The notes: a model not told the origin generated them from the sequence alone. A stretch of DNA of 64,000 bases from Candidatus Versatilivorator sp. (GCA_965207735.1 OZ242296.1:4320001-4384000); one strand, 5' to 3'; counted from the first letter of the stretch, positions 7,466 through 55,129 are shown. Program-made: numbers and translations.

Positions 7466-10259
7466 CCTGTTATTCCAGCGGGATCGGAAAGGTGAGCGTT
7501 CCGTCGTTGGAGCTGTTGTCCACGCTCACCACGTATAAGTAGGCTTCCCCGGGTATTTGCCAACTGATGAAGCCATTCTCCACCCGCGCCGAGACGGTCT
7601 TCTGCGAATAGCCCTTGGCCGGAAGATCGAACCTGATGATCTGCACAGGGTCGGCGCCTCTCTCCCCGGAATGGACTCCGGCAGTCACCGTCTGGCTCCG
7701 GCTCGAACTGTTGAACACCCCGATGTTGGTCCGCTTGTCGTCGTTGACGTTGACACCGAAGCTAATGGCCGATCCGGTATAGAGAAGCGGGGGCGTGGGC
7801 TGGTTGAGGACGACGGTGGTGTTTCTGCCACTGGAAGTATCGATGAATACCTCGACCGAAGCGACCTGAAAGGGCTTCTCAGCCGTGAACTCGACAGCGC
7901 CAGCCCCCCGGTATTCGAAGAGGGAACCCAGAAAATTGTTCCAGGAGTAATAGGTAACGGCTTCCAGCGAGATCGTTTCCTCCTTCACCAGCCCCTGGGC
8001 TCCGTAGAGCCTGGCCGTGACCTCGATGTCTTCCTCGCTCAGGTTCGCGAGGGTGAGGTTGGTTTTGAATATTCCCCCGAACCTGCCGGAAACGTTGGCG
8101 GTGGTGGGAATAACCCAGCGACGGGAAGTAAGAGGCGTGAGTCCTTCACCCACGGGAACCGGAGGCGTGTTGGCTGACGCCGTTCTCGACCAGTCAGATA
8201 CGTCGCCATCCTGACCATAGGCATACATCCGATAACTGTAGGAACGCTCCGGCTCGACGCTGCCGTCCACGAACTCCCGGCGACTCCTCCACAGCCACAC
8301 AAGCAACCCCCAGTCCCCGCCTTGATTCTGCCTGTCGATGCGAAATCCCCTTGCGTTCTCGCCGTTGTCATCTCTCCAATCGAGCCGGATGCGGTGTGGC
8401 CCCAGGGGCGTGGCGGTGAGCTGGTAGGGAGGCTGGAGCGGCTCTTGGACTGCCACCGATTCAAAGAGGGCGGTCACGTTTCTGGCGGAGCTCACCCGGA
8501 CGGTGCAGCGGTTGCCGGACACGGAATCGCATCCGCGCCAACTCTTGAACAGATAGCCCGAGTTGGGACTCGCCGTCAGGGTCAGACTGGTCCCGGAGGT
8601 ATAGGTATATCGGGGTTGGGACTCCAGGGCACTCAAGGCGGCATCGACCTGGATGCGGGGTCTCGTGATATTGTTCCGCGAGTCGGTGATGGACACCCCT
8701 GTGCTCTTCAGGGCGGAGAGCACCTGCTCCACCGAGGCGTTGGGCGCCTTGGACTTGAGCACGGCCCAGGCGCCCGCCACGTGGGGAGCCGCCCCGGAAG
8801 TACCGCCTGCTCTGCCAAATCGATTCCCTGGCACGGACGATCGGATCCATCGGCCCGGCGCCAGCAGATCCAGTTCGGGAGAACTGTTGGAAAAGTCGGA
8901 GACCTCGTCCCGGGTTGTCTCGGTGCCGTCGAAACCAGTACTGCCATCATCGGTCGATCCCACGCTTACGACGCTGGAGATGCAGGCAGGAGAGCCAATG
9001 CCCGTGGTGGATTCCTCGTTTCCGGAGGCGGCGATGGTGGCGATTCCGACGGCCCGCAGATTGTCGACGGCAGCTTTGCTGGCTGAATTCGAACCGTCGC
9101 ATTCACCGGGGAAAGCTTCGTCGGAGCCCAAGCTCATGTTGACGGCCGCGATGTCGAAGTTGTCGCTGAGTTCCAGCACCCGTTCCAGACCGGAGATGAT
9201 ATCGCCGTCAGATGCTCTTATGCAGGGTCCTTCAGCCTCCTCTTCCTCATCCTCATCGAGACAATCGTCGGGCTCGTTTCTCGAGAAAACCTGTATCGAA
9301 ATGAGCTCTGCATCTCTGGCCACGCCAGAAAAATCGGGCCCCTTGCCGGCAGCAATTCCAGCGACGTGGGTCCCATGAAAGCAGCCAGACAATTCGGGGT
9401 CCGAACAGGGCATGCCCGAGCCCGGCCTGGTGGATTCGGATACTCCCCCCGGACAGAGCGATTCTCCGTGGCCCCCACCCGAGTAGCAGGCCTCCGACAC
9501 CATCTTGCCTCGCAAGAACGCATGGTCCTTGTCCACCCCCGTATCCAGGATGGCAATGGTCTGGCCCGAGCCGCTGAACCCCTGACTCCAGGCCTGAGGC
9601 GCTCCCACCAGGGGACCGCTTTCCTCCAGCATCGGCTTCAGCAGCTTGTCCTCTTCGATACTGACCACCTCCGGGTCCGAGGCCAGAGCCTCCAACGCGG
9701 CCGCGTCCACCTCCATGGCCAAGTAAGGAATGTATTTGAACCTCCTGACTGACAAGACGCTGAAGCTGGCAATTCTGACCAACAGGGCCTGTTGGTCACG
9801 ATCGATCCGGCTCACCATGGCCGCCCGTGCCGCCGCATCCTTGAAGTTGCTTGCCGCCGAGACTTCGGAGCCTCCTTCGGATCTCAACCCGACGATGACT
9901 CTTACCCGACCCTCCTCCTGAACCCTGGCGGTCAACACCGCAAAATTCCTGGTCCTCTGAGCGCTTGCCGTAGGATTGACTGCCATGACGGGTCCGTCCG
10001 ACGACGGGGTTAGAGCATCCTCCACACCCCGGGTGAGGCGACTGAGCCTGCTCGTTGTGGCGCTGCAAGTCGATGTCTGGCTCGGCGTGACGGTTCCGGC
10101 CCCCTGCGGGACCACCCCGGTAGTCAGAGGAAAGCAACCGGAAGCTGAACCTTGCCGGACCGTAACGGTTCTGCTGTACTCGTTGTCTCGTTCGTTGCTC
10201 TCTGAAACCGAGTCTTCGGGATCAACAACGATCTTGAGGGTGTGTGTGCCAGGGCTTAG

Positions 10260-11957
10260 CCCGCATTTCTCACCAGAGGTAGGAAGCATCGGTTCTCGGA
10301 ATCTGGTAAAATACTCTTGTCTAAGGAGTTAACCAGATTCTTAAAGGAGAACCGATGCCGACACAGTGTAACACCAAACCCCTGGAGTTTGAACCCCACG
10401 GCCGCCGCCGCGTGGTGGCTGATTTCGACGGCGGTCCCATCACTTCCGATGCCGGCTCCCTGCTGTTGCGCCGGGTGGATCGGGGCTTATCTCTCTCCGA
10501 CCAGGTGGCCGACTGTTTCACCGATCACCGCGACCCCAAGCGGACCCAATACAGCCTGCGCACCCTCATCGCTCAGCGCATCCGTGGCATCGCCCTCGGC
10601 TACGAGGATCTCATCGACCACGACCAACTCCGTCACGATCCCCTCATGGCCTTGTTTTCAGAGAAAGGCCGTCGTGGCGACTCGCCTCCCCTGGCAGGCA
10701 AGAGCACCCTCAACCGACTCGAACACGCCCCCACCCAAGGCCCCACCCGCTACCACAAGATTGACCACGACCCCGAGGCCTTGCAAGCCCTCCTGGTGAA
10801 ACTGTTTCTGCAAGCCCATCCCCAACCCCCCGATGAGATCATCCTCGACCTCGACGCCACTGACGATCCCCTCCACGGGGAACAAGAGGACCGCTTCTTC
10901 CACGGCTACTACCGAGGCTACTGCTACCTGCCCCTCTACATCTTCTCGGGCCGCCATCTGCTCTCGGCCCTGCTCAGACCCGCCAACATCGATGCCTCCG
11001 CCGGCGCTCTGGAGCAGGTCCAGCGCATCGTCTCCCGCCTACGGCGTGTCTGGCCTCAGGTCAAGATCCTGCTGCGGGCCGACTCCGGCTTTGCCCGTGA
11101 GGAGCTGATGGGGTGGTGTGAGCAGCATCAGGTCGACTATCTCTTCGGCCTGGCCCGCAACTCCCGCCTCCAAGACGCCATCGCCCCCGAGTTGGCTCAG
11201 GCCCAGGCCCTCTCAGACCAGCAACAGCAGCCCGCCCGGATCTTCACCGACCTCTCCTACCGCACTCACAAGAGCTGGTCCCACGAGCGCCGCCTGGTCG
11301 CCAAAGCCGAGGTCCTGCCCCGCGGCCCCAACCCCCGCTTCGTCGTCACCTCTCTGTCGGTCCAGGACTACCCCGCCCAGTTCCTCTATGAGAAGATCTA
11401 CTGTGCCCGCGGTGAGATGGAAAACCGCATCAAGGAGCAGCAACTCGACCTGTTTGCCGATCGCACCTCCACCCACTCCTTCCGGGCGAATCAGCTCCGG
11501 CTCCTGATGACCTCTTTCGCCTATGTGCTGGTGGAGGGCTTGCGCCGGCGGGCGCTGCAATCCACCTGCCTGGCCCGGGCCACCGTCGGTTCCATCAGAC
11601 TCAAACTGCTCAAGATCGGCGCTCAGGTCACCATCTCGGTCCGTCGCATCAAGGTCGCCATGGCTTCCGGATGTCCTTACCAGAGGGAGTTCCGCATCGC
11701 TTGGGCTCACCTGCCGCCCTGAGGTGCCCTGACCCGACCGTCACTCCTGGCCCTTGAAGACGCGGCCACCAGGCCCGATGGCAGAGGTGTCGCTGTTTTC
11801 GAGGGAAAATGCCGCCTGAGGTTCCTCGGAGAGCCTCAGAAGCCTCCGCTGTTGGCCTTTGCCTACCGATCCAGCCACCAACGTTGTTAAACTCGGCCTC
11901 AAATGCCTCCATGGCCCCTTTTACCGCTCCTGTGCGAACTCTGGTGAGAAATGCGGG
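10260..11957 (+). mobile_element. IS1380-family insertion sequence, copy 1 (1698 bp)
   Basis: 19-bp terminal IRs cccgcatttctcaccagag / ctctggtgagaaatgcggg; 4-bp TSD TTAG at 10256-10259 and 11958-11961. Confidence 0.95.
10355..11722 (+). CDS. IS1380-family DDE transposase
   Basis: 'FDGGPITSDAG', 'LDLDATDDPLHG.QE', 'RADSGF', 'Y.ARGEMENRIKEQQ'. Confidence 0.95.
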   Translation: MPTQCNTKPLEFEPHGRRRVVADFDGGPITSDAGSLLLRRVDRGLSLSDQVADCFTDHRDPKRTQYSLRTLIAQRIRGIALGYEDLIDHDQLRHDPLMALFSEKGRRGDSPPLAGKSTLNRLEHAPTQGPTRYHKIDHDPEALQALLVKLFLQAHPQPPDEIILDLDATDDPLHGEQEDRFFHGYYRGYCYLPLYIFSGRHLLSALLRPANIDASAGALEQVQRIVSRLRRVWPQVKILLRADSGFAREELMGWCEQHQVDYLFGLARNSRLQDAIAPELAQAQALSDQQQQPARIFTDLSYRTHKSWSHERRLVAKAEVLPRGPNPRFVVTSLSVQDYPAQFLYEKIYCARGEMENRIKEQQLDLFADRTSTHSFRANQLRLLMTSFAYVLVEGLRRRALQSTCLARATVGSIRLKLLKIGAQVTISVRRIKVAMASGCPYQREFRIAWAHLPP

Positions 11958-13200: not shown

Positions 13201-13426
13201 ACGGGCCGTGACCCGGCCGGAAATAGCCTCGCGCAACCCTTCCAGCAGGCCTTCGAGCTTGGCCTGACCATGCTCCAGCCGAGCTACGCGGTCCCCCAGT
13301 TGATTAAGGTACGGTGCGGTTGTACCACTGGAACCTCGTTTGCGGCCATCGCGTGAGCGATGTCCCAGTCGATGACCGGAGGACAACCTGCTGCAAACCG
13401 TCTCATCACGCCCGCGTGTCGATGGC

Positions 13427-13555
13427 GCACAGTGTAACACCAACCCGTTGGAGTCTGAAGACTTCGACAGGCGCCGCGTGGCGGCTGTTTTTGGCGGCGA
13501 CCCCATGGCTTCCGATGCCGGCGCCCCGCGGTTGCGCCAGGTCGAACGGGATCAG
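13427..13555 (+). pseudogene. Degenerate 5' fragment of an IS1380-type transposase
   Basis: 'cacagtgtaacaccaacccgttggagtctgaa...cgccgcgtggcggctg...ttccgatgccggc' aligns to ~10361-10460. Confidence 0.75.
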
Positions 13556-13715
13556 ACGCCTGGAGAGGAGCGGCTACTGCCGACAGAGCCTTTCTCGGGA
13601 GCCCAACAAACACTCCGAAAGCACCACGGCACACCTGGTTCTCCAGTGCGGATGGCCACCGGTGGTACACTTGCACTCAAGAATGGTGTTGGCGTCGCCG
13701 CAGAATCGAGGACTC

Positions 13716-16700
13716 ATGAACAATCATGCTCTCCTGACCGATGGAGGAATGACGGGACCTAAAGCGATGTGCTTCCCTCCGGGAACGATCACTTGGTTTC
13801 ACAGGATTTCTCTCAGTCTTGTCAGGATCGCAGCCTTTTTTCTTGTTCCACTGGCCAGTGCGGCTGCGCAAGGGGTTTGCGATCGAACGCCGCAGGTTCG
13901 GGACCGTTTGGTCCATGCCACCGGGGTATCGAGCTGCGCAGAAGTGACCACGATGCACTTGGCCGATGTGAAGACATTATCTCTTTGGGCATCTGGCGCC
14001 ACCATGCTGCAAGACGGGGACTTTGATGGGTTAATTTCCCTGGAAGAGCTGAGCCTGCGTGGAAATGGGCTAAGTACATTACCCAAGGACATCTTTCGCG
14101 GCCTCAGCTCTCTGCAACTCCTTATTCTAGGTCAAAACATCCTGAGCTCATTGCCGGCAGAAGTGTTCCGCGGACTAGACTCGTTGCAAGAACTCTACAT
14201 GGCCGTCAATCAGCTCAGCAGCCTGCCCGAGGAGATATTCGACGGACTCAATTCTCTGGAAAAGCTCCACTTGGACAGGAACAAACTCAATACATTGCCC
14301 GAGAACATCTTTAACGGCCTCAACTCCCTTCAAATACTCAACATATACCAAAACCATCTGAGCTCATTGCCTGAAAAAGTCTTTCGGGGGCTCGGCTCTC
14401 TGGAACACGCAAATTTAAGCTACAACACCCTGAGCTCATTGCCGGAGGACGTGTTCCGCGGACTGGGCTCGCTGCAAGGGATCTACTTGTCCGGAAATCA
14501 GCTCGGCAGTCTGCCCGAGGAGATATTCAGCGGGCTGAGCAACCTCATATCTCTGCAACTGGGTCACAATCGCCTGGCTACCTTGTCCGCAGGCATCTTT
14601 GACGGACTAGGTTCCCTGCAGCATCTCGCCTTGTACCAAAATCAACTGATCACCTTACCAGACGGAACCTTTAGAGGGCTGAGTTCACTTGAAGAGCTGT
14701 ACCTCAATGAGAATCGGCTGACCCACTTGCCCGACGGGGTCTTTCCCGGATTGGCCAAGCTTGTAGTGCTTTGGTTGTCTGAGAACAACCTGACCACCTT
14801 ACCCAGGGGTATCTTCAACGACCTGAACAGTCTGGCCACTCTGGTTCTGGGAGACGGCGAATGGCCTCCCGGGATGCTCGACGAGGTGCTCGACACCTTG
14901 GGGGGGCCTTACACTTCATTTGGGGGGTCATCACCTCGCGAAGGAAGATTGGACCTGGGCTTCACGTTTTGGCTCGCCTTTGCTTCGCCATGGCAGACAG
15001 CCTCCCAAGGGGACACCGTCAAGGCAGAGGTCACCCTGAGCCGGGCCTTGCCGATGGCCGTCCACGTCCCCTATACAATAAGCGGCAGCGTCACGTCTGA
15101 CGACTACACGGATCTTTCACCTTCCCCTTCCGACGGACTGCTGTTTTTGGCCGGAGAAACAAGCAAGGAAATCACCGTGACCTTCGTGGAGAGCGGTGCC
15201 GCACAGGATAAGGACATGACTCTGAACTTGGGCGGCCGTTCCCCAATCGGGTTTCGACGATCCGACGGCACGGGCCCCGATGCCCCTCACCTGAATGCCG
15301 GCAGCTTTCTCGGAATTTCCTCCGACAGTTCCCATTTCATAAATGTCACTTCTCCCGTCCTGGACACTGACATCTGCGATCGCACGCCCCAGGTTCGAGA
15401 CAAGCTGATAGAACTCACCGGGGCATCGATGTGCGAGCAAGTCACCAGGAGATCCATGGCCAACAACCGCATTTGGCGTTTGGAGTTGGGATCGTCAGGC
15501 ATTACGACGCTACGGGAGGGTGACTTTGACTGGCTGAGTAATCTACTACAACTGCAACTGCACTCCAACCACTTGACCACCTTGCCCGAGGGAGTCTTTC
15601 GCGGGCTGGAGAATGTTACCCGCATTGAGTTGCAGCACAACGACCTGACCAACCTGCCCGCTGGAGTCTTTGATGGGCTGAGCTCCCTGCAGATTCTCTA
15701 CCTTTACTCCAATCAGTTAAGCACCTTACCTACAGGCATCTTTCGCGAACTCAGTTCGCTGCCAAGTCTGTCACTCGGCGACAATCAACTGACTACCTTG
15801 CCCTTACGCGTCTTTGACGGATTGAGCTCCCTGCAAAGCCTGACCCTCAGTGACAATCAACTGACAACTCTTCCCGCAGGAATCTTTGACGGACTGAGTT
15901 CCCTGCAATCTCTCAGCCTGCACTCCAATCAACTGGCCACTCTGCCCGAGTCAGCTTTCAGCACACTGAGCAACCTGACATTGTTGACCTTAAGCAACAA
16001 TGCTATGACCAACCTGCCCGAGGGCATCTTTCGCGGACACCCTTCCCTGCAGTGGCTGTACCTGAACGACAATCAACTGACCACATTGACCGAGAATACC
16101 TTCAATGGACTGAGTTCTCTGCGCACTCTCCACTTGCACTCCAATCAGCTGGCCGCTTTGCCCGAAGAGATTTTCCGCAACCTCGCTTCCCTGCGAAATC
16201 TCAGTTTGAATTCCAATAAGCTGAGCACCTTGCCCGCGGGAATCCTTCACGGGCTCGGTTCCCTGACATGGCTGTACCTATCTGACAATCAGTTCAGCAC
16301 CTTGCCAGAGGAGGTCTTCGGCGGGCTGAGTGACCTCCAACTCATTACATTGGGTCACAACTCTCTAACTGCTTTACCCGCAAATGTCTTCGGCGGGCTG
16401 GACGAACTGGCCTATCTGGGATTGGAGGCCAACTACCTCCTGAGCGAATTGCCCCCGGGAGTTTTCGACGACGTGCTCGATACCTTGGGTGGTCCTTATG
16501 CTTCTCCTCGATACGCGCAAACCTTGCAGGGGGAACTCACTCTAGCCACCGGGTTGAAGGCCTCGCTCCATTTCGCTTCGACCGCACAGCAAGCCTCCGA
16601 AGGAAACACCGTCAGAGTCGCGGCGGTCTTGAGCCGCCCCTTGCCAGTGGCCGTGCGCGTCCCCTATTCCGCGGGCGGCAGCGCCACGGCTGGCGATTAC

Positions 16701-18449
16701 AATGACCTGACGCCCTCCCCATCCGAGGGACTGCTGTTTCTGTCCGGCGAGACGCGCAAGGAAATCGTCTTTTCACTATTGGAGAACAAATCCAGCCAAG
16801 GCAAGACTGTTACGCTGACTTTAGGTGAACTATCTGAAATCGGCCTGCGCCGGTCCGACGGCGCCGGTCCCGACGCTCCCTATCTCAAGACTGAAACCTT
16901 CGCCGACCGTCCCTTCGAGGAGGCCACCCACACGGTGACCATCACCGGCTCCGGTTCGGGAGGGACAGATCCTGACGCGGCGGAGGACTTTTTTGTTCCC
17001 GTCCTTCTGACGGCCGCCGGACGCAACAACTCCTTTTTTACTTCAGAGCTGACCCTGACCAACCGGGGACCCGAACCGGCCATCCTCAACTACACCTACA
17101 CGACCCATCCTGGAGATAAGAGCTTCGCCGCCACCGACATGCTCGGCCCCCTGCAGCAGAAGATCAAACCCAACGCCATCGACTATCTGAGGGGGCTGGA
17201 AGTTCCCATTCCCGAAAGAGGCAGTCAGGTTGGGACTTTGAAAGTGGATGTGACCGGTTCATCCGAAGTGGCCGTTGTGGTGCGGACCACCACGGCCGTG
17301 CCAGAAGGGCGGGCCGGACTGGCCTATCTGGGGATACCGGGTCATGAGGGATTCCAGGACGAAGCGGTCTATCTGTGCGGGCTGCGGCAGAACCAGCAGG
17401 ACCGTTCCAACGTGGCCCTCCAGAACATGGGGGGCGAGGGTGAGATCACCTTGAGGACCACGGTGTTTTCCGGGAATGCGGCCGATAGGATTGGCCGGAT
17501 GCTGGAGGACCAGAGGCTGGGACCGGGAGAGTTCCACCAGTTCAATGCAGTAATGGCTGATAAGGGCGATCCCATGTTTGGTGGCTACGTGAGGGTGGAA
17601 CGGGTGAAGGGGAAGGCGCCATTCTACGCCTACGGGGTCATCAACGACCAGGCCAACTCGGACGGCTCGTTCATCTTTCCGGTCAGTGAGAGTTCACTGG
17701 CGGGAGCCATGGGACAGACCCTGCCGGTAGTGATAGAGGTGGGGCCCTTCACCAGCGAGTTGACGGTGACCAACTTCTCGGACGAACCGAAGGGCGTGAG
17801 TTTCAGCCTGGTGGCCGATGCTATCGAGGCGGAGGATGACACGGTCACCTTTAGCCTGCCGCTTCTTCCCGGTCAGCAGTACATCATTCCCAATGCGATA
17901 GACACGGTGCGCCAACAGCTCGGCATCAACCTGCCGAGCGGCCTGGCCGTGCCCTTGTTCGCCACAGCCGAAAATGGAGACATGAGCGGGATCGTGATTG
18001 GAGCCCGGACGGGGTCACTGGCAGATCCGGGAGACGTGGGCAGGGGTCAATACAGCGTCTTCTACACAGCGGTGCCCCAGGGAGCAGCTTTCGCCGAACG
18101 CGCCTGGGTGGACGGGTTGCAGCAGAATGAAGAGAACCGGAGCAACCTGGCCCTGGTCAACACCGGAGAGGTCGATGACAGCGAAAGCGTCTTCAAACTG
18201 GAGATTTACGACGGGGAAACGGCCATGCTGGTCAATATCGTCAGCAACGACGACACCACGGTTGGGGCCAAGCGTTGGCATCAGATCAACGGCATCCTGC
18301 GCAAGTACGGTAAGGGGGCCAAACAAGGGTATGTGCGGATCACAAAGGAGTCCGGCAACAATCCCTTCCTGGCCTACGGGGTGGTCAACGACGGCGGAAT
18401 TCCCAGGCAGCGGAGCGACGACGGGGCCTATATCCCGGCCAGGGAGTAG
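13716..18449 (+). CDS. Large secreted leucine-rich-repeat protein: two (Cys N-cap, 24-aa LRR block, Calx-beta-like) modules plus conserved C-terminal module
   Basis: ~12-13 and ~14 repeats of LxxLxxLxLxxNxLxxLPxxxFxG; 'CDRTPQVRD' caps; signal-peptide-like segment. Start uncertain: the ORF is open from 13314, but that part overlaps IS/plasmid relics. Confidence 0.9.
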   Translation: MNNHALLTDGGMTGPKAMCFPPGTITWFHRISLSLVRIAAFFLVPLASAAAQGVCDRTPQVRDRLVHATGVSSCAEVTTMHLADVKTLSLWASGATMLQDGDFDGLISLEELSLRGNGLSTLPKDIFRGLSSLQLLILGQNILSSLPAEVFRGLDSLQELYMAVNQLSSLPEEIFDGLNSLEKLHLDRNKLNTLPENIFNGLNSLQILNIYQNHLSSLPEKVFRGLGSLEHANLSYNTLSSLPEDVFRGLGSLQGIYLSGNQLGSLPEEIFSGLSNLISLQLGHNRLATLSAGIFDGLGSLQHLALYQNQLITLPDGTFRGLSSLEELYLNENRLTHLPDGVFPGLAKLVVLWLSENNLTTLPRGIFNDLNSLATLVLGDGEWPPGMLDEVLDTLGGPYTSFGGSSPREGRLDLGFTFWLAFASPWQTASQGDTVKAEVTLSRALPMAVHVPYTISGSVTSDDYTDLSPSPSDGLLFLAGETSKEITVTFVESGAAQDKDMTLNLGGRSPIGFRRSDGTGPDAPHLNAGSFLGISSDSSHFINVTSPVLDTDICDRTPQVRDKLIELTGASMCEQVTRRSMANNRIWRLELGSSGITTLREGDFDWLSNLLQLQLHSNHLTTLPEGVFRGLENVTRIELQHNDLTNLPAGVFDGLSSLQILYLYSNQLSTLPTGIFRELSSLPSLSLGDNQLTTLPLRVFDGLSSLQSLTLSDNQLTTLPAGIFDGLSSLQSLSLHSNQLATLPESAFSTLSNLTLLTLSNNAMTNLPEGIFRGHPSLQWLYLNDNQLTTLTENTFNGLSSLRTLHLHSNQLAALPEEIFRNLASLRNLSLNSNKLSTLPAGILHGLGSLTWLYLSDNQFSTLPEEVFGGLSDLQLITLGHNSLTALPANVFGGLDELAYLGLEANYLLSELPPGVFDDVLDTLGGPYASPRYAQTLQGELTLATGLKASLHFASTAQQASEGNTVRVAAVLSRPLPVAVRVPYSAGGSATAGDYNDLTPSPSEGLLFLSGETRKEIVFSLLENKSSQGKTVTLTLGELSEIGLRRSDGAGPDAPYLKTETFADRPFEEATHTVTITGSGSGGTDPDAAEDFFVPVLLTAAGRNNSFFTSELTLTNRGPEPAILNYTYTTHPGDKSFAATDMLGPLQQKIKPNAIDYLRGLEVPIPERGSQVGTLKVDVTGSSEVAVVVRTTTAVPEGRAGLAYLGIPGHEGFQDEAVYLCGLRQNQQDRSNVALQNMGGEGEITLRTTVFSGNAADRIGRMLEDQRLGPGEFHQFNAVMADKGDPMFGGYVRVERVKGKAPFYAYGVINDQANSDGSFIFPVSESSLAGAMGQTLPVVIEVGPFTSELTVTNFSDEPKGVSFSLVADAIEAEDDTVTFSLPLLPGQQYIIPNAIDTVRQQLGINLPSGLAVPLFATAENGDMSGIVIGARTGSLADPGDVGRGQYSVFYTAVPQGAAFAERAWVDGLQQNEENRSNLALVNTGEVDDSESVFKLEIYDGETAMLVNIVSNDDTTVGAKRWHQINGILRKYGKGAKQGYVRITKESGNNPFLAYGVVNDGGIPRQRSDDGAYIPARE

Positions 18450-37541: not shown

Positions 37542-37991
37542 CTCGCTAATGAATCGTCGATTGCAGATTTCTGTGCCCGATCAATGGGCCCATTATACTG
37601 AATACGGCCACTCAGGTGCCTGACGAACTGTCGAATTCCGACCGGGATTTCTGCTACGGCCGGTTTTCGACGCTGCGGCTTGAATGCGTTGTTCGGGCGG
37701 GTATCCCGGATTTCTCACCAGGGGAAGTGCTCTTCAGCAAAGTGCAGGGAGGGCGGGGCGTGCTTACCCGCATTCCTCGCCAGGTCGCTGGTGGCAAGAC
37801 GAAAAGTAGTTCATCCTCACTACCTTGATCGGCTCCATGGTAAGGGCTTGTAGGTAACAGACTGCGCTGGGCATGCCCAGGTCAGAAACGCGGCTTGGAG
37901 CGAATTTGGAGAGATTGCCCGTTTCGGAAGGATGCGACAGAATCGCCGGGTGAAAGGCTGGAGGGGAACGAAAGGAAAGAGACTGATGGCT

Positions 37992-40307: not shown

Positions 40308-40638
40308 GGAGATTCCTCCTCTTTTGAACCGGCCATTCAATAGTAGGGATGCAAACCCTTGTCAACGGTTTGGCTCAGATTGGGGATAGAGGAGAGTTAA
40401 GAGCAAACTGGCACCTTTCCAATCACGCTTGTCTGAAACAACCGACAAAGACAAAAGAAAAAGAGTGATCCACGAAGGGACACTAAGAACGACGAAGGGA
40501 CACCAAGGTATTGAGGTGAACCGCGACGGGATGCCAAGGTCGCGAAGGGATAGCCGATTTCTGATTGTTTCACTTTTGGATGATCTGCCCGACAGGGCAG
40601 GGGCCTCGCTTGCCTGAAACAACCGACAAAAGACAAAG

Positions 40639-42125
40639 GAGCCTTTTGCAAAATTCGCAGATAGCGGGAATTTTCACGTGGGGAAAGATCAAGGAGGGCA
40701 GGTGGAAGGAGGGGCAAGACCACTGTCTGTTGTATCATGAAGGTGTCTGAACCACATGATGAACGGAGGTGGAACTTGCCCCTTAGGGAAACCCTATCAC
40801 GACACTGGTTCCGGTTTCAACGAGAGCTGTTTCCCCTGCTGGAGGAAGTTTTGGGGCCTCTGGGAGAGCGTTACCAGCGGCTGGTGCAGGTATTGGAGTT
40901 GGTGCGGGTGGAGGAGTTGCTGCCTTACAGTCGGGGCTGGCGTGGCCGGCCGCTGGAGGATCGGGCAGTGCTGGCGCGAGCCTATCTGGCGAAGTCGATG
41001 CTGGAGGTGGCGACCACGCGGGGATTGGTGGAGCGGCTGAGGAGTGAGGGGAGGCTGCGGCGGCTGTGCGGCTGGGAGAGGGCGTGGGAGGTACCGAGCG
41101 AGTCGACCTTCTCGCGGGCCTTTGCGGAATTCGCTGAGAGCGACCTGCCGGGGCGTTTGCACGAGGCATTGCTGGAGGAGACGCTGAAGGGCCACTTGGC
41201 GGGGCATGTGTCGAGGGACTCGACGGCGATTGCGGGACGGGAAAAGCCAGCGGCCAAGGCTGCGCCGGAGGCCAAGCGGAAACGCCGGCGGGGCCGGCCG
41301 CCGAAGGGCGAGCGACGGCCCAAGCGGTTGAGCCGGCTGGAGCGGCAGGGGTCGATGACGCTGGAGGAAATGTTGAAGGAGTTGCCCAAGGCCTGCGACA
41401 TCGGCGTCAAGCGCAACGCCAAGGGGCATCAGGAGAGCTGGACCGGCTACAAGCTACACCTCGACGCCATTGACGGCGGGATTCCGGTCAGTTGTCTGCT
41501 GACCTCGGCCTCGGTGCATGACTCTCAGGCAGCCATTCCGCTGGCGACGCTGACGGCAAGGCGGGTCGAGAGTCTCTACGACTTGATGGACAGCGCCTAC
41601 GATGCGCCGGAGATCCGGGCCTTCAGTGAGAAGCTGGGGCATGTGCCGATTATTGACGTCAACCCCCGCCGAAGAGCTACCTTGAAAGCCGAGCGGAAGC
41701 GGGAGGCACTGGCCCGGCGCTGTATCGGCCAAGTGACTCCCGAGGCGCGGCGCTACCGGGAACGCTCGACGGTGGAGCGGGTCAACGGACGGCTCAAGGA
41801 GGAGTTTGGCGGGAGGCAGGTGAGGGTTCGCGGCCCCGACAAGGTGAGGTGCCACCTGATGTTCGGCATTCTGGCCCTGACGGTGGATCAGTTGATGCGC
41901 CTGACGCTCTGAAGACCGGGTTGCCACCCCCAACCGCACAGCAGGTTCGCCCGCCTCAAGGCCGGGAGAGGGTAAGCTGTGCCTGCGTCCGGCGACCGCT
42001 GGCCATCCGGCCATCAGATTCGGGCTTTTTCCTTCAAAAGGGTCTTTGCAGCTGGGTAGTCACCGCCGGAACATCACTGTTGCCAGCCCAATGTCATGCC
42101 CGATTCCGAATTTTGCAAAAGGCTC
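40639..42125 (+). mobile_element. IS5/IS1182-like insertion sequence (1487 bp)
   Basis: 19-bp IRs gagccttttgcaaaattcg / cgaattttgcaaaaggctc; TSD AAAG at 40635-40638 and 42126-42129; family assignment tentative. Confidence 0.9.
40737..41912 (+). CDS. DDE transposase (DDE_Tnp_1-like)
   Basis: 'VPSESTFSRAF', 'RDSTAI', 'GYKLHL', 'MDSAYD', 'Y.ERSTVERVNGRLK'. Confidence 0.92.
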   Translation: MKVSEPHDERRWNLPLRETLSRHWFRFQRELFPLLEEVLGPLGERYQRLVQVLELVRVEELLPYSRGWRGRPLEDRAVLARAYLAKSMLEVATTRGLVERLRSEGRLRRLCGWERAWEVPSESTFSRAFAEFAESDLPGRLHEALLEETLKGHLAGHVSRDSTAIAGREKPAAKAAPEAKRKRRRGRPPKGERRPKRLSRLERQGSMTLEEMLKELPKACDIGVKRNAKGHQESWTGYKLHLDAIDGGIPVSCLLTSASVHDSQAAIPLATLTARRVESLYDLMDSAYDAPEIRAFSEKLGHVPIIDVNPRRRATLKAERKREALARRCIGQVTPEARRYRERSTVERVNGRLKEEFGGRQVRVRGPDKVRCHLMFGILALTVDQLMRLTL

Positions 42126-42273
42126 AAAGAAAAAGACTTATCCACGAAGGGGCACGAAGAACGACGAAGGGCCACTAACCCGCATTTCTCACCAGAGGTA
42201 GGAAGCATCGGTTCTCGGAATCTGGTAAAATACTCTTGTCTAAGGAGTTAACCAGATTCTTAAAGGAGAACCG

Positions 42274-43641
42274 ATGCCGACACAGTGTAACACCAAACCC
42301 CTGGAGTTTGAACCCCACGGCCGCCGCCGCGTGGTGGCTGATTTCGACGGCGGTCCCATCACTTCCGATGCCGGCTCCCTGCTGTTGCGCCGGGTGGATC
42401 GGGGCTTATCTCTCTCCGACCAGGTGGCCGACTGTTTCACCGATCACCGCGACCCCAAGCGGACCCAATACAGCCTGCGCACCCTCATCGCTCAGCGCAT
42501 CCGTGGCATCGCCCTCGGCTACGAGGATCTCATCGACCACGACCAACTCCGTCACGATCCCCTCATGGCCTTGTTTTCAGAGAAAGGCCGTCGTGGCGAC
42601 TCGCCTCCCCTGGCAGGCAAGAGCACCCTCAACCGACTCGAACACGCCCCCACCCAAGGCCCCACCCGCTACCACAAGATTGACCACGACCCCGAGGCCT
42701 TGCAAGCCCTCCTGGTGAAACTGTTTCTGCAAGCCCATCCCCAACCCCCCGATGAGATCATCCTCGACCTCGACGCCACTGACGATCCCCTCCACGGGGA
42801 ACAAGAGGACCGCTTCTTCCACGGCTACTACCGAGGCTACTGCTACCTGCCCCTCTACATCTTCTCGGGCCGCCATCTGCTCTCGGCCCTGCTCAGACCC
42901 GCCAACATCGATGCCTCCGCCGGCGCTCTGGAGCAGGTCCAGCGCATCGTCTCCCGCCTACGGCGTGTCTGGCCTCAGGTCAAGATCCTGCTGCGGGCCG
43001 ACTCCGGCTTTGCCCGTGAGGAGCTGATGGGGTGGTGTGAGCAGCATCAGGTCGACTATCTCTTCGGCCTGGCCCGCAACTCCCGCCTCCAAGACGCCAT
43101 CGCCCCCGAGTTGGCTCAGGCCCAGGCCCTCTCAGACCAGCAACAGCAGCCCGCCCGGATCTTCACCGACCTCTCCTACCGCACTCACAAGAGCTGGTCC
43201 CACGAGCGCCGCCTGGTCGCCAAAGCCGAGGTCCTGCCCCGCGGCCCCAACCCCCGCTTCGTCGTCACCTCTCTGTCGGTCCAGGACTACCCCGCCCAGT
43301 TCCTCTATGAGAAGATCTACTGTGCCCGCGGTGAGATGGAAAACCGCATCAAGGAGCAGCAACTCGACCTGTTTGCCGATCGCACCTCCACCCACTCCTT
43401 CCGGGCGAATCAGCTCCGGCTCCTGATGACCTCTTTCGCCTATGTGCTGGTGGAGGGCTTGCGCCGGCGGGCGCTGCAATCCACCTGCCTGGCCCGGGCC
43501 ACCGTCGGTTCCATCAGACTCAAACTGCTCAAGATCGGCGCTCAGGTCACCATCTCGGTCCGTCGCATCAAGGTCGCCATGGCTTCCGGATGTCCTTACC
43601 AGAGGGAGTTCCGCATCGCTTGGGCTCACCTGCCGCCCTGA
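42274..43641 (+). CDS. IS1380-family transposase (protein identical to 10355-11722)
   Basis: Identical translated ORF. Confidence 0.95.
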   Translation: MPTQCNTKPLEFEPHGRRRVVADFDGGPITSDAGSLLLRRVDRGLSLSDQVADCFTDHRDPKRTQYSLRTLIAQRIRGIALGYEDLIDHDQLRHDPLMALFSEKGRRGDSPPLAGKSTLNRLEHAPTQGPTRYHKIDHDPEALQALLVKLFLQAHPQPPDEIILDLDATDDPLHGEQEDRFFHGYYRGYCYLPLYIFSGRHLLSALLRPANIDASAGALEQVQRIVSRLRRVWPQVKILLRADSGFAREELMGWCEQHQVDYLFGLARNSRLQDAIAPELAQAQALSDQQQQPARIFTDLSYRTHKSWSHERRLVAKAEVLPRGPNPRFVVTSLSVQDYPAQFLYEKIYCARGEMENRIKEQQLDLFADRTSTHSFRANQLRLLMTSFAYVLVEGLRRRALQSTCLARATVGSIRLKLLKIGAQVTISVRRIKVAMASGCPYQREFRIAWAHLPP

Positions 43642-43863
43642 GGTGCCCTGACCCGACCGTCACTCCTGGCCCTTGAAGACGCGGCCACCAGGCCCGATGG
43701 CAGAGGTGTCGCTGTTTTCGAGGGAAAATGCCGCCTGAGGTTCCTCGGAGAGCCTCAGAAGCCTCCGCTGTTGGCCTTTGCCTACCGATCCAGCCACCAA
43801 CGTTGTTAAACTCGGCCTCAAATGCCTCCATGGCCCCTTTTACCGCTCCTGTGCGAACTCTGG

Positions 43864-44732
43864 GTAGAGTCGAGGACTGGCGCGTTGACTATAGGGTCCG
43901 GTGGCTATTCCGTCGCTTTCGCTTCGGGCCTCAGTCCGGCTCCCTTATCACGTTTCCAGTCCCCGCTCTCCGAACCGGACGTGCGGTTTTCCCGCATCTC
44001 GGCTCTCCAGTGGGATCATGCGTCTCGCACACAGGTCCCCGCTCGCATCCGTGGACGACTCCTATGGGATTGGCACCCGTCCCCCACTCCATCCACTTCC
44101 GCTCCCGGGTTGCCGCCAGGCCTGTTGATGCCCTGACGACGCCGTCCTCCTCCGACGACCCTTTCACTTTTGCATGTGATGCTTCCGGAGTCTCCGGCCC
44201 TTTTTTGGTCGGGGTTTCAGGCTTTCGCCACTCCCGGGACCCTTCCCCCTTCGGTCACCGCTCCTCACCTGAGGCCCCTTCCCTCCACCGGTATTACCCG
44301 GCTTCTCCGGTACTACAGGCCTCTCCGCCACCCTGTCGGCCTAGACTGACTCTCGCGAGCTTCCGGTTCGGTGCGTGCCTCACCACCCACAGGGCTTCCC
44401 ATGTTGCTGCCTTCTTCCCCTTCCATGCGTGCCAGCGCCACTACCCCGGCGGGTCCAAAGGGGTGCCCGCGTCGCTCGCTTCCCCCTCCGTCTTCGGCCT
44501 TCCCCATTTCTCAGGTGGGTCGGCCCCCGCATTGCCCGTTTCGAGGCCTGCTCGACGTTCACTCGCGTTCCGGCCCGCATGCTCGCTGAACCGCCTTAAG
44601 CGGCCCTTTGACACCAGAGGGCTTCAGACCATATCGTTACCTCCATGATCCGCCCTGGCTGCTACCAACCGGAGCGACAGTTGTTGGACGGGTTTCGCAC
44701 CCGTTGGAAGAAGGCGCCTTTCCATGGCGCAC
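43864..44732 (-). ncRNA. ORF-less group II intron (IIB-like), 869 nt
   Basis: Minus strand starts GUGCG and ends ...CUCUAC. 34-nt domain V GAGCCGAGAUGCGGGAAAACCGCACGUCCGGUUC (43972-44005) with AGC triad. Domain VI stem with bulged A 7 nt from the end. EBS1 loop UGAGAAA (44507-44513) is complementary to the 5' exon UUUCUCA. Precise removal restores the IS IR. Confidence 0.93.
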
Positions 44733-45132
44733 TGAGAAATGCGGGCTAAGGCGCTGAGGTTAACCGCGACGGGATACCAAGTTCGCGAAAGAATTGTCGA
44801 TTTCCGATTGTTTCACCCTCGGATGATCTGCCCGAAAGGGCAGGGGCTCGGCTTGTCTGAAACAACCGAGAAAAGAGTGATCCACGAAGACACACGAAGG
44901 ACCACTAAGGGCCAATAAGGCATTGAGGTGAACCGCGACGGGATTCCACGCTCGCGAAGGGATGATCGATTTCTGATTGCTTTACTCTCGAATGAACCGC
45001 ACTGCAGGTCGGGGCCGGACCAAACATGCACGCCGGTCTTGGCCGGAATCCCTGCCCTGCAATCCCATCGCCTTTCGACACCGATTAAGATACACTGGAG
45101 CCAACGATAGACTTTGAACCGGAGGGGGACTC

Positions 45133-46038: not shown

Positions 46039-46200
46039 CCCGCATTTCTCACCCGGCCGCTGGATTCACAATGAAAGGCCATTTATTTTCAGCAACTTGT
46101 TGGTCCGATGGTGATGCCTTGCGGTTACATACGGTGCTGGGCGCGCCCTGGCTTGCCCTTTTCCTGCACCATGATCACGCCTCCTGGTGAGAAATGCGGA
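46039..46200. mobile_element. MITE-like element with IS1380-type ends (~162 bp)
   Basis: cccgcatttctcacc at 46039 and ggtgagaaatgcgga ending at 46200; no clear TSD (atag vs ctgg). Confidence 0.75.
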
Positions 46201-53869: not shown

Positions 53870-55129
53870 ATGGCTCTGCCTTCCTGGTGGCTAATCGGCT
53901 GGCGCAATCTCGGCCGCAACCCCAAACGCACCTTCATCACGGCCCTGGGCCTGGCAGCCGGCTACTTTGCCGTCATCTTCATGGTAGGCTTCGCCGACGG
54001 ACTCAAGGTGGAGATGATCGACAACGGCACCGGCCTGATGACGGGGCAGATACAGATCCACTCGCCCCGCTACAGGCCGGACCGCAGCCTCTACGAGACC
54101 ATCGGGGGCCGTGCCGGAGCCGACTTCGAAGCCGTAATCCGGACTGCGGTCCGAGACCCCGCCGTGGTCGGGGCCGCTCCCCGAGTCTACGGCGCGGGGC
54201 TTCTGAGCTCGGGACAATCCACCAGGGGTGGCATGCTGATGGGCATCGACCTCGATCGCGAGCCCGGGGTCAGTCGCCTCATGAATTCTCTTTCGCAAGG
54301 GCGGGCTCCAGCCCCGGCAGCCAACGAACTGATGATCGGAACCGAAATGGCTCGCCGGCTCGAACTGCAGGTCGGCAACGAGGTCATCCTGGTGGCTCCC
54401 GCGGCAGACGGCTCCATGGGCAACGACATTTTCCAGGTATGCGGGCTCTACCGGACGGGAATGGCGGACCTGGACGGCGCCTTCGCCCTGGTGCCGATCC
54501 GGTCGCTGCAGCGTTTGCTGGCTCTCGATCCGGGGAGGATTCACGAGATCGCCCTCTCTACCGCCGATCCCTGGCTGGCTCCGGAAGCCGGCCGCCGGCT
54601 GGTTGCCGGCCTGGCGCCCCTGGGGGTAGAGCTGGAGGTCCTTGACTGGACCCGGCTGCGGCCGGAGATGCTCGAATACGCGCTTTTGATGGATTCCTGG
54701 TACTCGATCGTGGTGCTCATCGTCTTCGCCTTCGCCCTGTTCGGCGTCGCCAACACCATGCTCATGTCCACTTTCGAGCGACGGCGGGAGTTCTCGGTGA
54801 TGCTGGCTCTGGGAGCCAGACCCCACCAGATATTGCTCACGGTGGTTTCGGAAGCCACGGCGCTGGGATGGATCAGCCTGGCCCTGGGCGTGGCCGTCAC
54901 CTTTCCGCTCATTGCCTGGTGGCACCATTACCCGATCGACCTGAGCTGGATCTACGGCGATCTCACCATGTTGGGAGCGCTGATACGCCCCGTTCTCAGG
55001 ATCGAGTACAACCTCCCCGTGTCTCTGTGGACCGGCCTGGCGCTGCTGGTGACCGCGGTGACAGCCGGTCTCTACCCGGCGGCGCGAGCCGCATGGCTGC
55101 CACCGGCCGACACGCTCTCGGGCCTATGA
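53870..55129 (+). CDS. ABC transporter permease (FtsX/LolE-like)
   Basis: 'WRNLGRN.KRT', 'NTMLMS.FERRREF..MLALG'. Confidence 0.88.
   Translation: MALPSWWLIGWRNLGRNPKRTFITALGLAAGYFAVIFMVGFADGLKVEMIDNGTGLMTGQIQIHSPRYRPDRSLYETIGGRAGADFEAVIRTAVRDPAVVGAAPRVYGAGLLSSGQSTRGGMLMGIDLDREPGVSRLMNSLSQGRAPAPAANELMIGTEMARRLELQVGNEVILVAPAADGSMGNDIFQVCGLYRTGMADLDGAFALVPIRSLQRLLALDPGRIHEIALSTADPWLAPEAGRRLVAGLAPLGVELEVLDWTRLRPEMLEYALLMDSWYSIVVLIVFAFALFGVANTMLMSTFERRREFSVMLALGARPHQILLTVVSEATALGWISLALGVAVTFPLIAWWHHYPIDLSWIYGDLTMLGALIRPVLRIEYNLPVSLWTGLALLVTAVTAGLYPAARAAWLPPADTLSGL

Follow-up and report, generated by a model that had tools for sequence, protein, structure and literature searches.

An ORF-less group II intron in a terminal inverted repeat of an IS1380 element of Candidatus Versatilivorator sp. 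and its likely spread by replication-linked retrohoming

The stretch of DNA analysed here (the window; GCA_965207735.1 OZ242296.1:4320001-4384000) covers 64,000 nucleotides of Candidatus Versatilivorator sp., whose genome (G000) is a single contig of 5.26 Mb. Major features are summarized in Table 1. Once an intron is excised in silico, the IS1380 element at 42179-44745 measures 1698 bp and shows zero differences from copy 1, a second element of the same window. It has all the hallmarks of the IS1380 family: a 455-aa transposase (NCBIfam model NF033539, 410.6 bits, cut-off 180), perfect 19-bp terminal inverted repeats (IRs) and a 4-bp target duplication that is matched in 19 of the 20 genome copies. 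The intron starts 222 bp downstream of the transposase ORF on the opposite strand, 13 bp from the tip of the right IR, and the CTAA duplication is retained on both sides. These data confirm the anatomy given in the initial annotation, namely an intact transposase identical to that of copy 1, a right IR with its outer 13 bp and CTAA kept and its inner 6 bp displaced by 869 nt, a minus-strand intron antisense to the transposase and outside its ORF, and a composite of 2567 bp. In runs X1, X2 and X3, which represent two samples of one study, contigs connect the intron 5' end with the tip; no piece bridging the locus with 31 letters on each side was found among the listed contigs of these runs. A 306-aa ORF runs opposite to the intron at 43728-44648 (+); it has no RT similarity and was not accepted as a gene. 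In a scan for alternative right ends inside the composite, the top matches reached 13/19 (the true tip and one overlap at 43846), with nothing convincing within the intron.

Table 1. Features of the split IS1380 copy and related sites (window positions unless marked G000)
Feature	Position	Strand	Basis
Left target duplication CTAA, 4 bp	42175..42178	+	sequence comparison
Left terminal IR of IS1380, 19 bp, intact; empty + strand target for the intron	42179..42197	+	
IS1380-family transposase ORF, 455 aa, DNA identical to copy 1	42274..43641	+	profile match
Inner 6 bp of right IR, displaced; its first base (C) begins the intron 3' exon	43858..43863	+	
ORF-less group II intron, 869 nt; 28 genome copies, 22 identical	43864..44732	-	Rfam match, copy alignment
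Intron domains V-VI	43864..44007	-	Rfam RF00029
EBS1 loop (intron nt 220-227), complementary to last 8 nt of IR tip	44506..44513	-	complementarity, covariation
Outer 13 bp of right IR, the intron 5' exon, containing IBS1	44733..44745	-	
Right target duplication CTAA	44746..44749	+	
Intron-free sister IS copy 1, TTAG duplication	10260..11957	+	
Dispersed repeat halves with the IS inserted between	42126-42178 and 44746-44828 (up to 44960)		~245 empty sites in genome
IS1182-adjacent tips (L024)	G000 677211, 838669, 1212815, 3947350, 4620950, 5027596, 5074256		

The neighbourhood holds other mobile DNA. A 391-aa second DDE transposase lies just upstream of the composite (40737-41912), above the cut-off of an IS5-like model and below that of the IS1182 model, and decayed MITE-family ends without introns are found at 37705-37880 and 46039-46200. 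IS copy 1 is flanked on one side by a 1711-aa leucine-rich-repeat protein (13314-18449, +) and on the other by a subtilase with InlB B-repeat-like and CARDB domains (7470-10289, -).

The insert begins with GTGCG and ends with AC, fitting the group II termini (5' GUGYG, 3' AY). It scores 80.8 bits against Rfam model RF02003 (cut-off 49) and 41.2 bits against RF00029 (cut-off 40), and its fold has a z-score of -4.09 relative to 20 shuffles. By its ends, domains V-VI, domain I core and EBS1-IBS1 pairing, it is a group II intron, and its splicing is predicted. No RT remnant was detected in the 869 nt by tblastn (best E 0.18). The RNA runs X15 and X16 contain diverged relatives as contigs, and neither a splice joint nor an IS circle was among the Logan contigs listed. 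IStrons are group I introns fused with an IS200/IS605 element; this arrangement was excluded, as the present intron is of group II and does not enclose the transposase ORF but is located beyond it.

The genome contains 28 copies of this intron, 22 of which are identical and 6 of which have one to three differences. The insertion site is no chance event, since every copy follows the same 13-nt tip (27 exactly, one with a single mismatch). Six of the 20 IS1380 copies are hosts, as are 19 MITEs, and 3 introns are at unpaired tips; the MITEs are 18 of the 42 paired copies of a 243-bp element with the same tips as IS1380, plus one further shortened MITE. Both ends of the MITE and both ends of the IS are used. 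Among the IS composites, 4 right ends and 2 left ends are filled, so the intron is not always at the right IR, a point that had been raised for checking. Eighteen of the IS1380 copies are identical, one has a one-base difference and one is 97% alike; 14 of the 20 are intron-free. In all six IS composites the duplications are intact and the IS core, including the transposase ORF and the upstream sequence, is identical; these cores are too similar to yield a tree. The MITEs are older, with a median difference of 9 bases among 31 full-length ones, and the identity of introns in such unlike hosts places the arrival of the intron after host divergence. The intron variant C433T is common to one A-end and one B-end copy.

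The window composite sits in a dispersed repeat (~130-180 bp, hundreds of copies, also present in the window at 40440-40640) whose CTAA site is occupied by 4 of the 20 IS1380 copies. It has a twin at 5248576 in the same repeat position, and an empty IS at 2734739 occupies that position in the opposite orientation. No element of G000 is doubly occupied, although some 2.5 would be expected in the absence of bias (P 0.08; the element count is approximate). In the related genome G011, one MITE (L026) with a matched TTAA duplication carries an intron at each end. A metagenome element (L188) with matched TTAG is reduced to two tips joined by the intron 5' stem. At G000 572744-572986, a 243-bp MITE has its own nt 14-20 replaced by the first 7 nt of the intron at unchanged length, as if a stretch exactly as long as the intron had been lost with an offset.

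Target recognition was examined across RT-coding relatives, where 60 of 76 RT loci yielded 26 distinct EBS1 loops. On average 4.56 of the five EBS1 loop bases pair with the intron's own 5' exon, compared with 2.27 after shuffling, and 0 of 5000 shuffles was as good. A 6-mer upstream of EBS1, the sole EBS2 candidate put to the covariation test, complements the outer tip; it was rejected, being near-constant across targets without covariation (p 0.49), and its place in the alignment suggests a stem partner. Outside the tip, the protein probably reads the YTAR target duplication: favoured-strand tips (as defined by the strand analysis below) flanked by YTAR are filled in 23 of 49 cases and others in 2 of 15 (p 0.03), and many targets of the relatives have a YTAR-like motif of weak consensus 14-17 nt upstream. 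Upstream hairpins do not appear to aid insertion, as the folding energy is the same at 18 filled and 39 empty sites (p 0.91). The genome also contains 13 copies of a 1.58-kb IS1182-family element (NF033551, above cut-off), which adjoins IS1380 and MITE tips, the two sharing a CTAG; an exact tip is contacted by 9 of the 13 start-side ends. The 7 favoured-strand tips adjoining it are all filled (Table 1), compared with 18 of the 57 others (p 0.0008), and both off-strand IS1182-adjacent exact tips are empty. A consensus scan found no outward promoter in the IS1182 end, and a search for literature on IS1182 targeting MITEs found none.

ORF-less bacterial introns are nearly always accompanied by RT-coding helpers (PMC4424553). 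Fifteen RT-coding sister introns of about 2 kb are present in G000, 14 with a full YADD ORF of 452-455 aa and one frameshifted; most of them (13) are inserted in the dispersed repeat. The 452-aa sister RT is above the TIGR04416 cut-off, matches RVT_1 and GIIM only at E 0.01 and has no endonuclease family match; its plasmid relatives are less than 60% identical and carry no class label. The sister at G000 5004992 occupies the left IR of an IS that is 88% related, shares its EBS1 loop with the ORF-less intron and is 92-96% identical to that intron over nt 1-300. Its RT is the best candidate for a helper and likely acts in trans. Domains IV-VI of the ORF-less intron are only 58-78% like those of RT introns, and the ORF-less introns are visibly mosaic. 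The window intron and an ORF-less intron at G000 1134708-1135573 (L025) are 92-99% identical in domains IV-VI and 75% in the EBS1 module, and their two EBS1 modules each match a different RT-coding intron (92% and 100%; L005, L006). Recombination thus appears to retarget one ORF-less chassis by swapping the EBS1 module. In the relatives G004 and G008, ORF-less copies occur at a third target, the dispersed repeat.

Beyond this genome, the exact 20-nt junction of tip and intron was found in at least 120 metagenome stretches, 80 of which were examined. Among these 80, YTAR, which is not part of the search pattern, stands just upstream in 64; an RT with 35-76% identity to the helper is present in 36; and an IS1380-like transposase is present in 8, with 5 left-end and 2 right-end insertions. 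An intron body is present in 40 of them; of the rest, 21 are 5' stubs, and 19 do not extend far enough to tell. The stubs (L122-L201) consist of the tip and about 20-240 nt of the intron 5' end, and one also occurs in G000 at 331238. The closest RTs are 81-94% identical and come mostly from Ca. Versatilivorator, Terriglobia and Acidobacteria records.

The orientation of the copies offers a test of how they spread. An endonuclease-less, fork-primed intron is predicted to be in the sense of the lagging-strand template, whereas a transposed composite should follow the orientation of the IS. In G000, dnaA at 3.54 Mb coincides with the GC-skew minimum, the skew maximum is at 0.73 Mb, and the 3.98-4.51 Mb segment, which contains the window, has reversed skew; the 2.77-3.10 Mb segment also has reversed or flat GC skew. 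With GC-skew segments, 25 of the 28 intron copies are on the expected strand (p 2.7e-5); plain dnaA and terminus give 24 of 28, and local skew in 100-kb windows gives 23 of 28. Of the exact tips, 25 of 64 carry the intron on the favoured strand but 2 of 83 on the other, while IS1380 orientation relative to replication is unbiased (8/20). In the relatives G005, G009 and G011, 32 of 37 junctions fit dnaA plus antipode (these three, which are kin, had the junction among five genomes searched, and RT-coding and truncated copies are included). Because the intron copies follow the direction of replication and the IS orientation does not, the spread is likely by in-place retrohoming.

The window copy itself fits the strand rule only if the 3.98-4.51 Mb segment is counted as inverted, a model adopted after the exception had been noticed and backed by the skew. 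At the right breakpoint of this segment, the flanking pieces are oppositely oriented in 4 of 5 relatives (~7 kb informative), and the G000 minus strand of the inner piece is the leading strand in the 4 relatives with dnaA located; at the left breakpoint the inner side is multi-copy and uninformative for synteny. The segment looks inverted relative to the relatives. Within it, 0 of 8 tips are filled on the plus strand and 1 of 6 on the minus strand. Taken alone, the six IS composites show no significant bias, with 5 of 6 on the expected strand (p 0.22) and 4 of 6 under the plain model.

We consider it likely that the IS1380 element inserted first and that a non-autonomous intron then retrohomed into its right IR with the RT of the sister introns. 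This reading is built on the position of the intron, the copy catalogue, EBS1 pairing and covariation, the endonuclease-less RT-coding sisters and the strand bias. A sister RT, with that of the 5004992 copy as the best candidate, would splice and bind the ORF-less RNA, whose EBS1 would pair with the IR tip while the protein probably reads the YTAR duplication outside; a good site would therefore exist only after an IS or MITE has landed. Reverse splicing of the RNA would then take place at a replication fork, with the lagging-strand template as its substrate. As every element has a single target on either strand, replication direction would decide between left and right end, with the antisense, right-end position of the window intron as a by-product. 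The initial annotation had offered two readings, either that the insertion immobilises this copy or that the composite spreads as a unit without any RT. That alternative mostly fails in view of the 28 copies including those in MITEs, the 15 RT-coding sisters and the strand bias. The RT-free part in particular finds no support, given the 14 full YADD ORFs, the filling of left IRs, MITE ends and unpaired tips, and the replication-direction bias; the likely route is retrohoming in place, without an endonuclease and with an RT provided in trans. Further composites with distinct flanks, which had been proposed as the means of telling the two readings apart, do exist (6 IS, 19 MITE), but they do not tell the models apart because independent retrohoming also makes distinct-flank composites; the strand test does.

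Co-transposition might nevertheless act as a minor second route, in which the 13-bp tip still works and composites carry a minority of the copies without an RT; we regard this as unlikely, though not remote. ISEcp1, a member of the IS1380 family, uses imperfect right ends (PMC12589106), and the intact duplications and identical cores of the six IS composites also speak for this route. The right-end IS composite at 690340 is off-strand, the off-strand composite at 54570 is only 2 bases from the on-strand composite at 5074256, and in the sole identical pair among the 42 MITEs (5027596/5213340) the same end is filled although the flanks differ. One member of this pair, 5213340, has a mismatched duplication (TTAG/CTAG), unlike a fresh jump. 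The twin of the window composite also speaks for this route but can be a hot spot, given the oppositely oriented empty IS at the same repeat position, and a dead mini-composite in G011 is single-copy among the 5 genomes searched. Favoured-strand IS ends are filled less than MITE ends (5/20 vs 18/33, p 0.048; p 0.13 without IS1182-adjacent tips). Off-strand copies are no commoner than among introns unable to piggyback (p 1.0): sister introns at non-IS repeats are off-strand in 2 of 16 cases, comparable with 3 of 28 here, and the co-transposed fraction fitted from these off-strand rates is 0. The 95% upper bound is 0.39, so that the data allow up to 39%, and the control depends on the segment model, as only 10 of 17 copies of the sister-intron set fit with 100-kb local skew. 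Homologous recombination (gene conversion) between repeats, spreading some copies with neither RT nor transposase, is in our judgement very improbable. Long flanking homology is available to it in the dispersed repeat, the IS1182 copies and the MITE body, and the ORF-less introns are mosaic. Same-end intron-bearing MITEs are closer than random labels (p 0.012; comparison of same with opposite ends, p 0.09), the intron occupies 3 of the 4 IS copies within the dispersed repeat but 3 of 16 elsewhere (p 0.06), and the complete filling of favoured-strand IS1182-adjacent tips points the same way. Gene conversion predicts no strand bias, however, and the two off-strand exact tips beside IS1182 are empty; the filled ones comprise A ends, B ends and one IS end without common right-hand homology, next to IS1182 alleles that differ (96-100%). 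Occasional co-transposition or gene conversion may accompany retrohoming. A fuller combination, with homing by a borrowed RT and DNA cargo (at most about one third of copies) as two routes, an IS1380 transposase that tolerates imperfect ends and EBS1 swaps retargeting the chassis to three sites, seems unlikely.

In the two-part architecture of terminal IRs, the inner bases bind the transposase. This opens the question of suppression, in which the intron would immobilise IS1380 and the MITEs and be kept for that benefit to the host, a role that we find distinctly unlikely. The displaced positions 14-18 are conserved, with a consensus CCRGG (C 38, C 40, R 41, G 36 and G 36 of 47 distinct empty ends), and 21 of the 61 long metagenome junction loci (among at least 120) are 5' stubs without intron body, as if elements that are hit decay. 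The split IR, in which positions 14-18 are replaced, would likely impair the window copy in cis and so weaken its own transposition. Its transposase could still be supplied, and any suppression would be limited to cis. Family-wide suppression of IS1380 is unlikely because the transposase gene, with its upstream sequence, is intact in 6 of 6 composites. The burst continued, since the 20 IS copies include 14 without an intron and 18 with identical sequence, and most intron copies sit in MITEs, which encode nothing. The proposal itself comes from RmInt1 (PMC3035460) and was extended to RmInt2 (PMC5894124). Retrohoming in place, with a probable cis effect as a consequence, remains our preferred account.

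The intron is a parasite of a parasite, likely depending on one element for its enzyme and on another for the places where it lands. Because 28 copies can be set against matched empty targets of either strand, fork-linked retrohoming becomes visible in a closed genome without experiment, and the catalogue bounds the contribution of co-transposition. The split IR is also a natural test of how much of the IS1380 end the transposase needs. The present analysis contributes the strand test, the bound on co-transposition, the swap of EBS1 modules and the association with IS1182 ends, for which no explanation was found. A search of the open-access literature found no paper on IS1380 IRs as targets of group II introns or on the co-transposition of such composites; PMC8643678 concerns IIB1 and IIB2 introns and has no decisive bearing.

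Among known systems, ISEcp1 units share the transposase family and can use imperfect right ends, which is why co-transposition is possible at all; in those units new duplications at alternative ends have been observed, whereas here both left and right ends are hit and movement as a unit is only a candidate (PMC12589106). RmInt1 in ISRm2011-2, from which the idea of an intron curbing an IS originates, interrupts the transposase gene and barely splices (PMC3035460); here the transposase ORF is untouched and only the end is split in cis. The closest parallel in behaviour is RmInt2, which occupies both IRs of ISRm17 with a lagging-strand-template bias shown experimentally (PMC4615759). Like RmInt2, the present intron is endonuclease-less, targets both terminal IRs of an IS with one target per replication strand, and has the lagging-strand-template bias. 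A sister RT/maturase without an endonuclease domain and the strand bias place it with the endonuclease-less retrohoming introns (classes C, D, E, F and g). RmInt2 has its own protein, belongs to class D and uses EBS2, whereas here the abundant form is ORF-less, the IS1380 IR is shared with a 243-bp MITE and the candidate EBS2 fails covariation, so that class D is not assigned. For movement by the protein of another intron, the parallel is the ORF-less TeI3 introns of Thermosynechococcus elongatus, which were tested and are moved by a relative's protein (PMC2882425). As with TeI3, ORF-less copies outnumber ORF-bearing ones, EBS/IBS matches are good and families differ in EBS, the helper in trans being here a putative one. 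Clear ORF-deletion ends mark the TeI3 introns, however, and the TeI4 proteins contain domains for DNA binding and endonuclease activity; in the present case domains IV-VI are diverged from those of RT introns, the candidate helper lacks a match to any endonuclease family and insertion is into the end of a transposon. By analogy, then, the intron is one that works like RmInt2 combined with TeI3-type ORF loss, a principle already in print.
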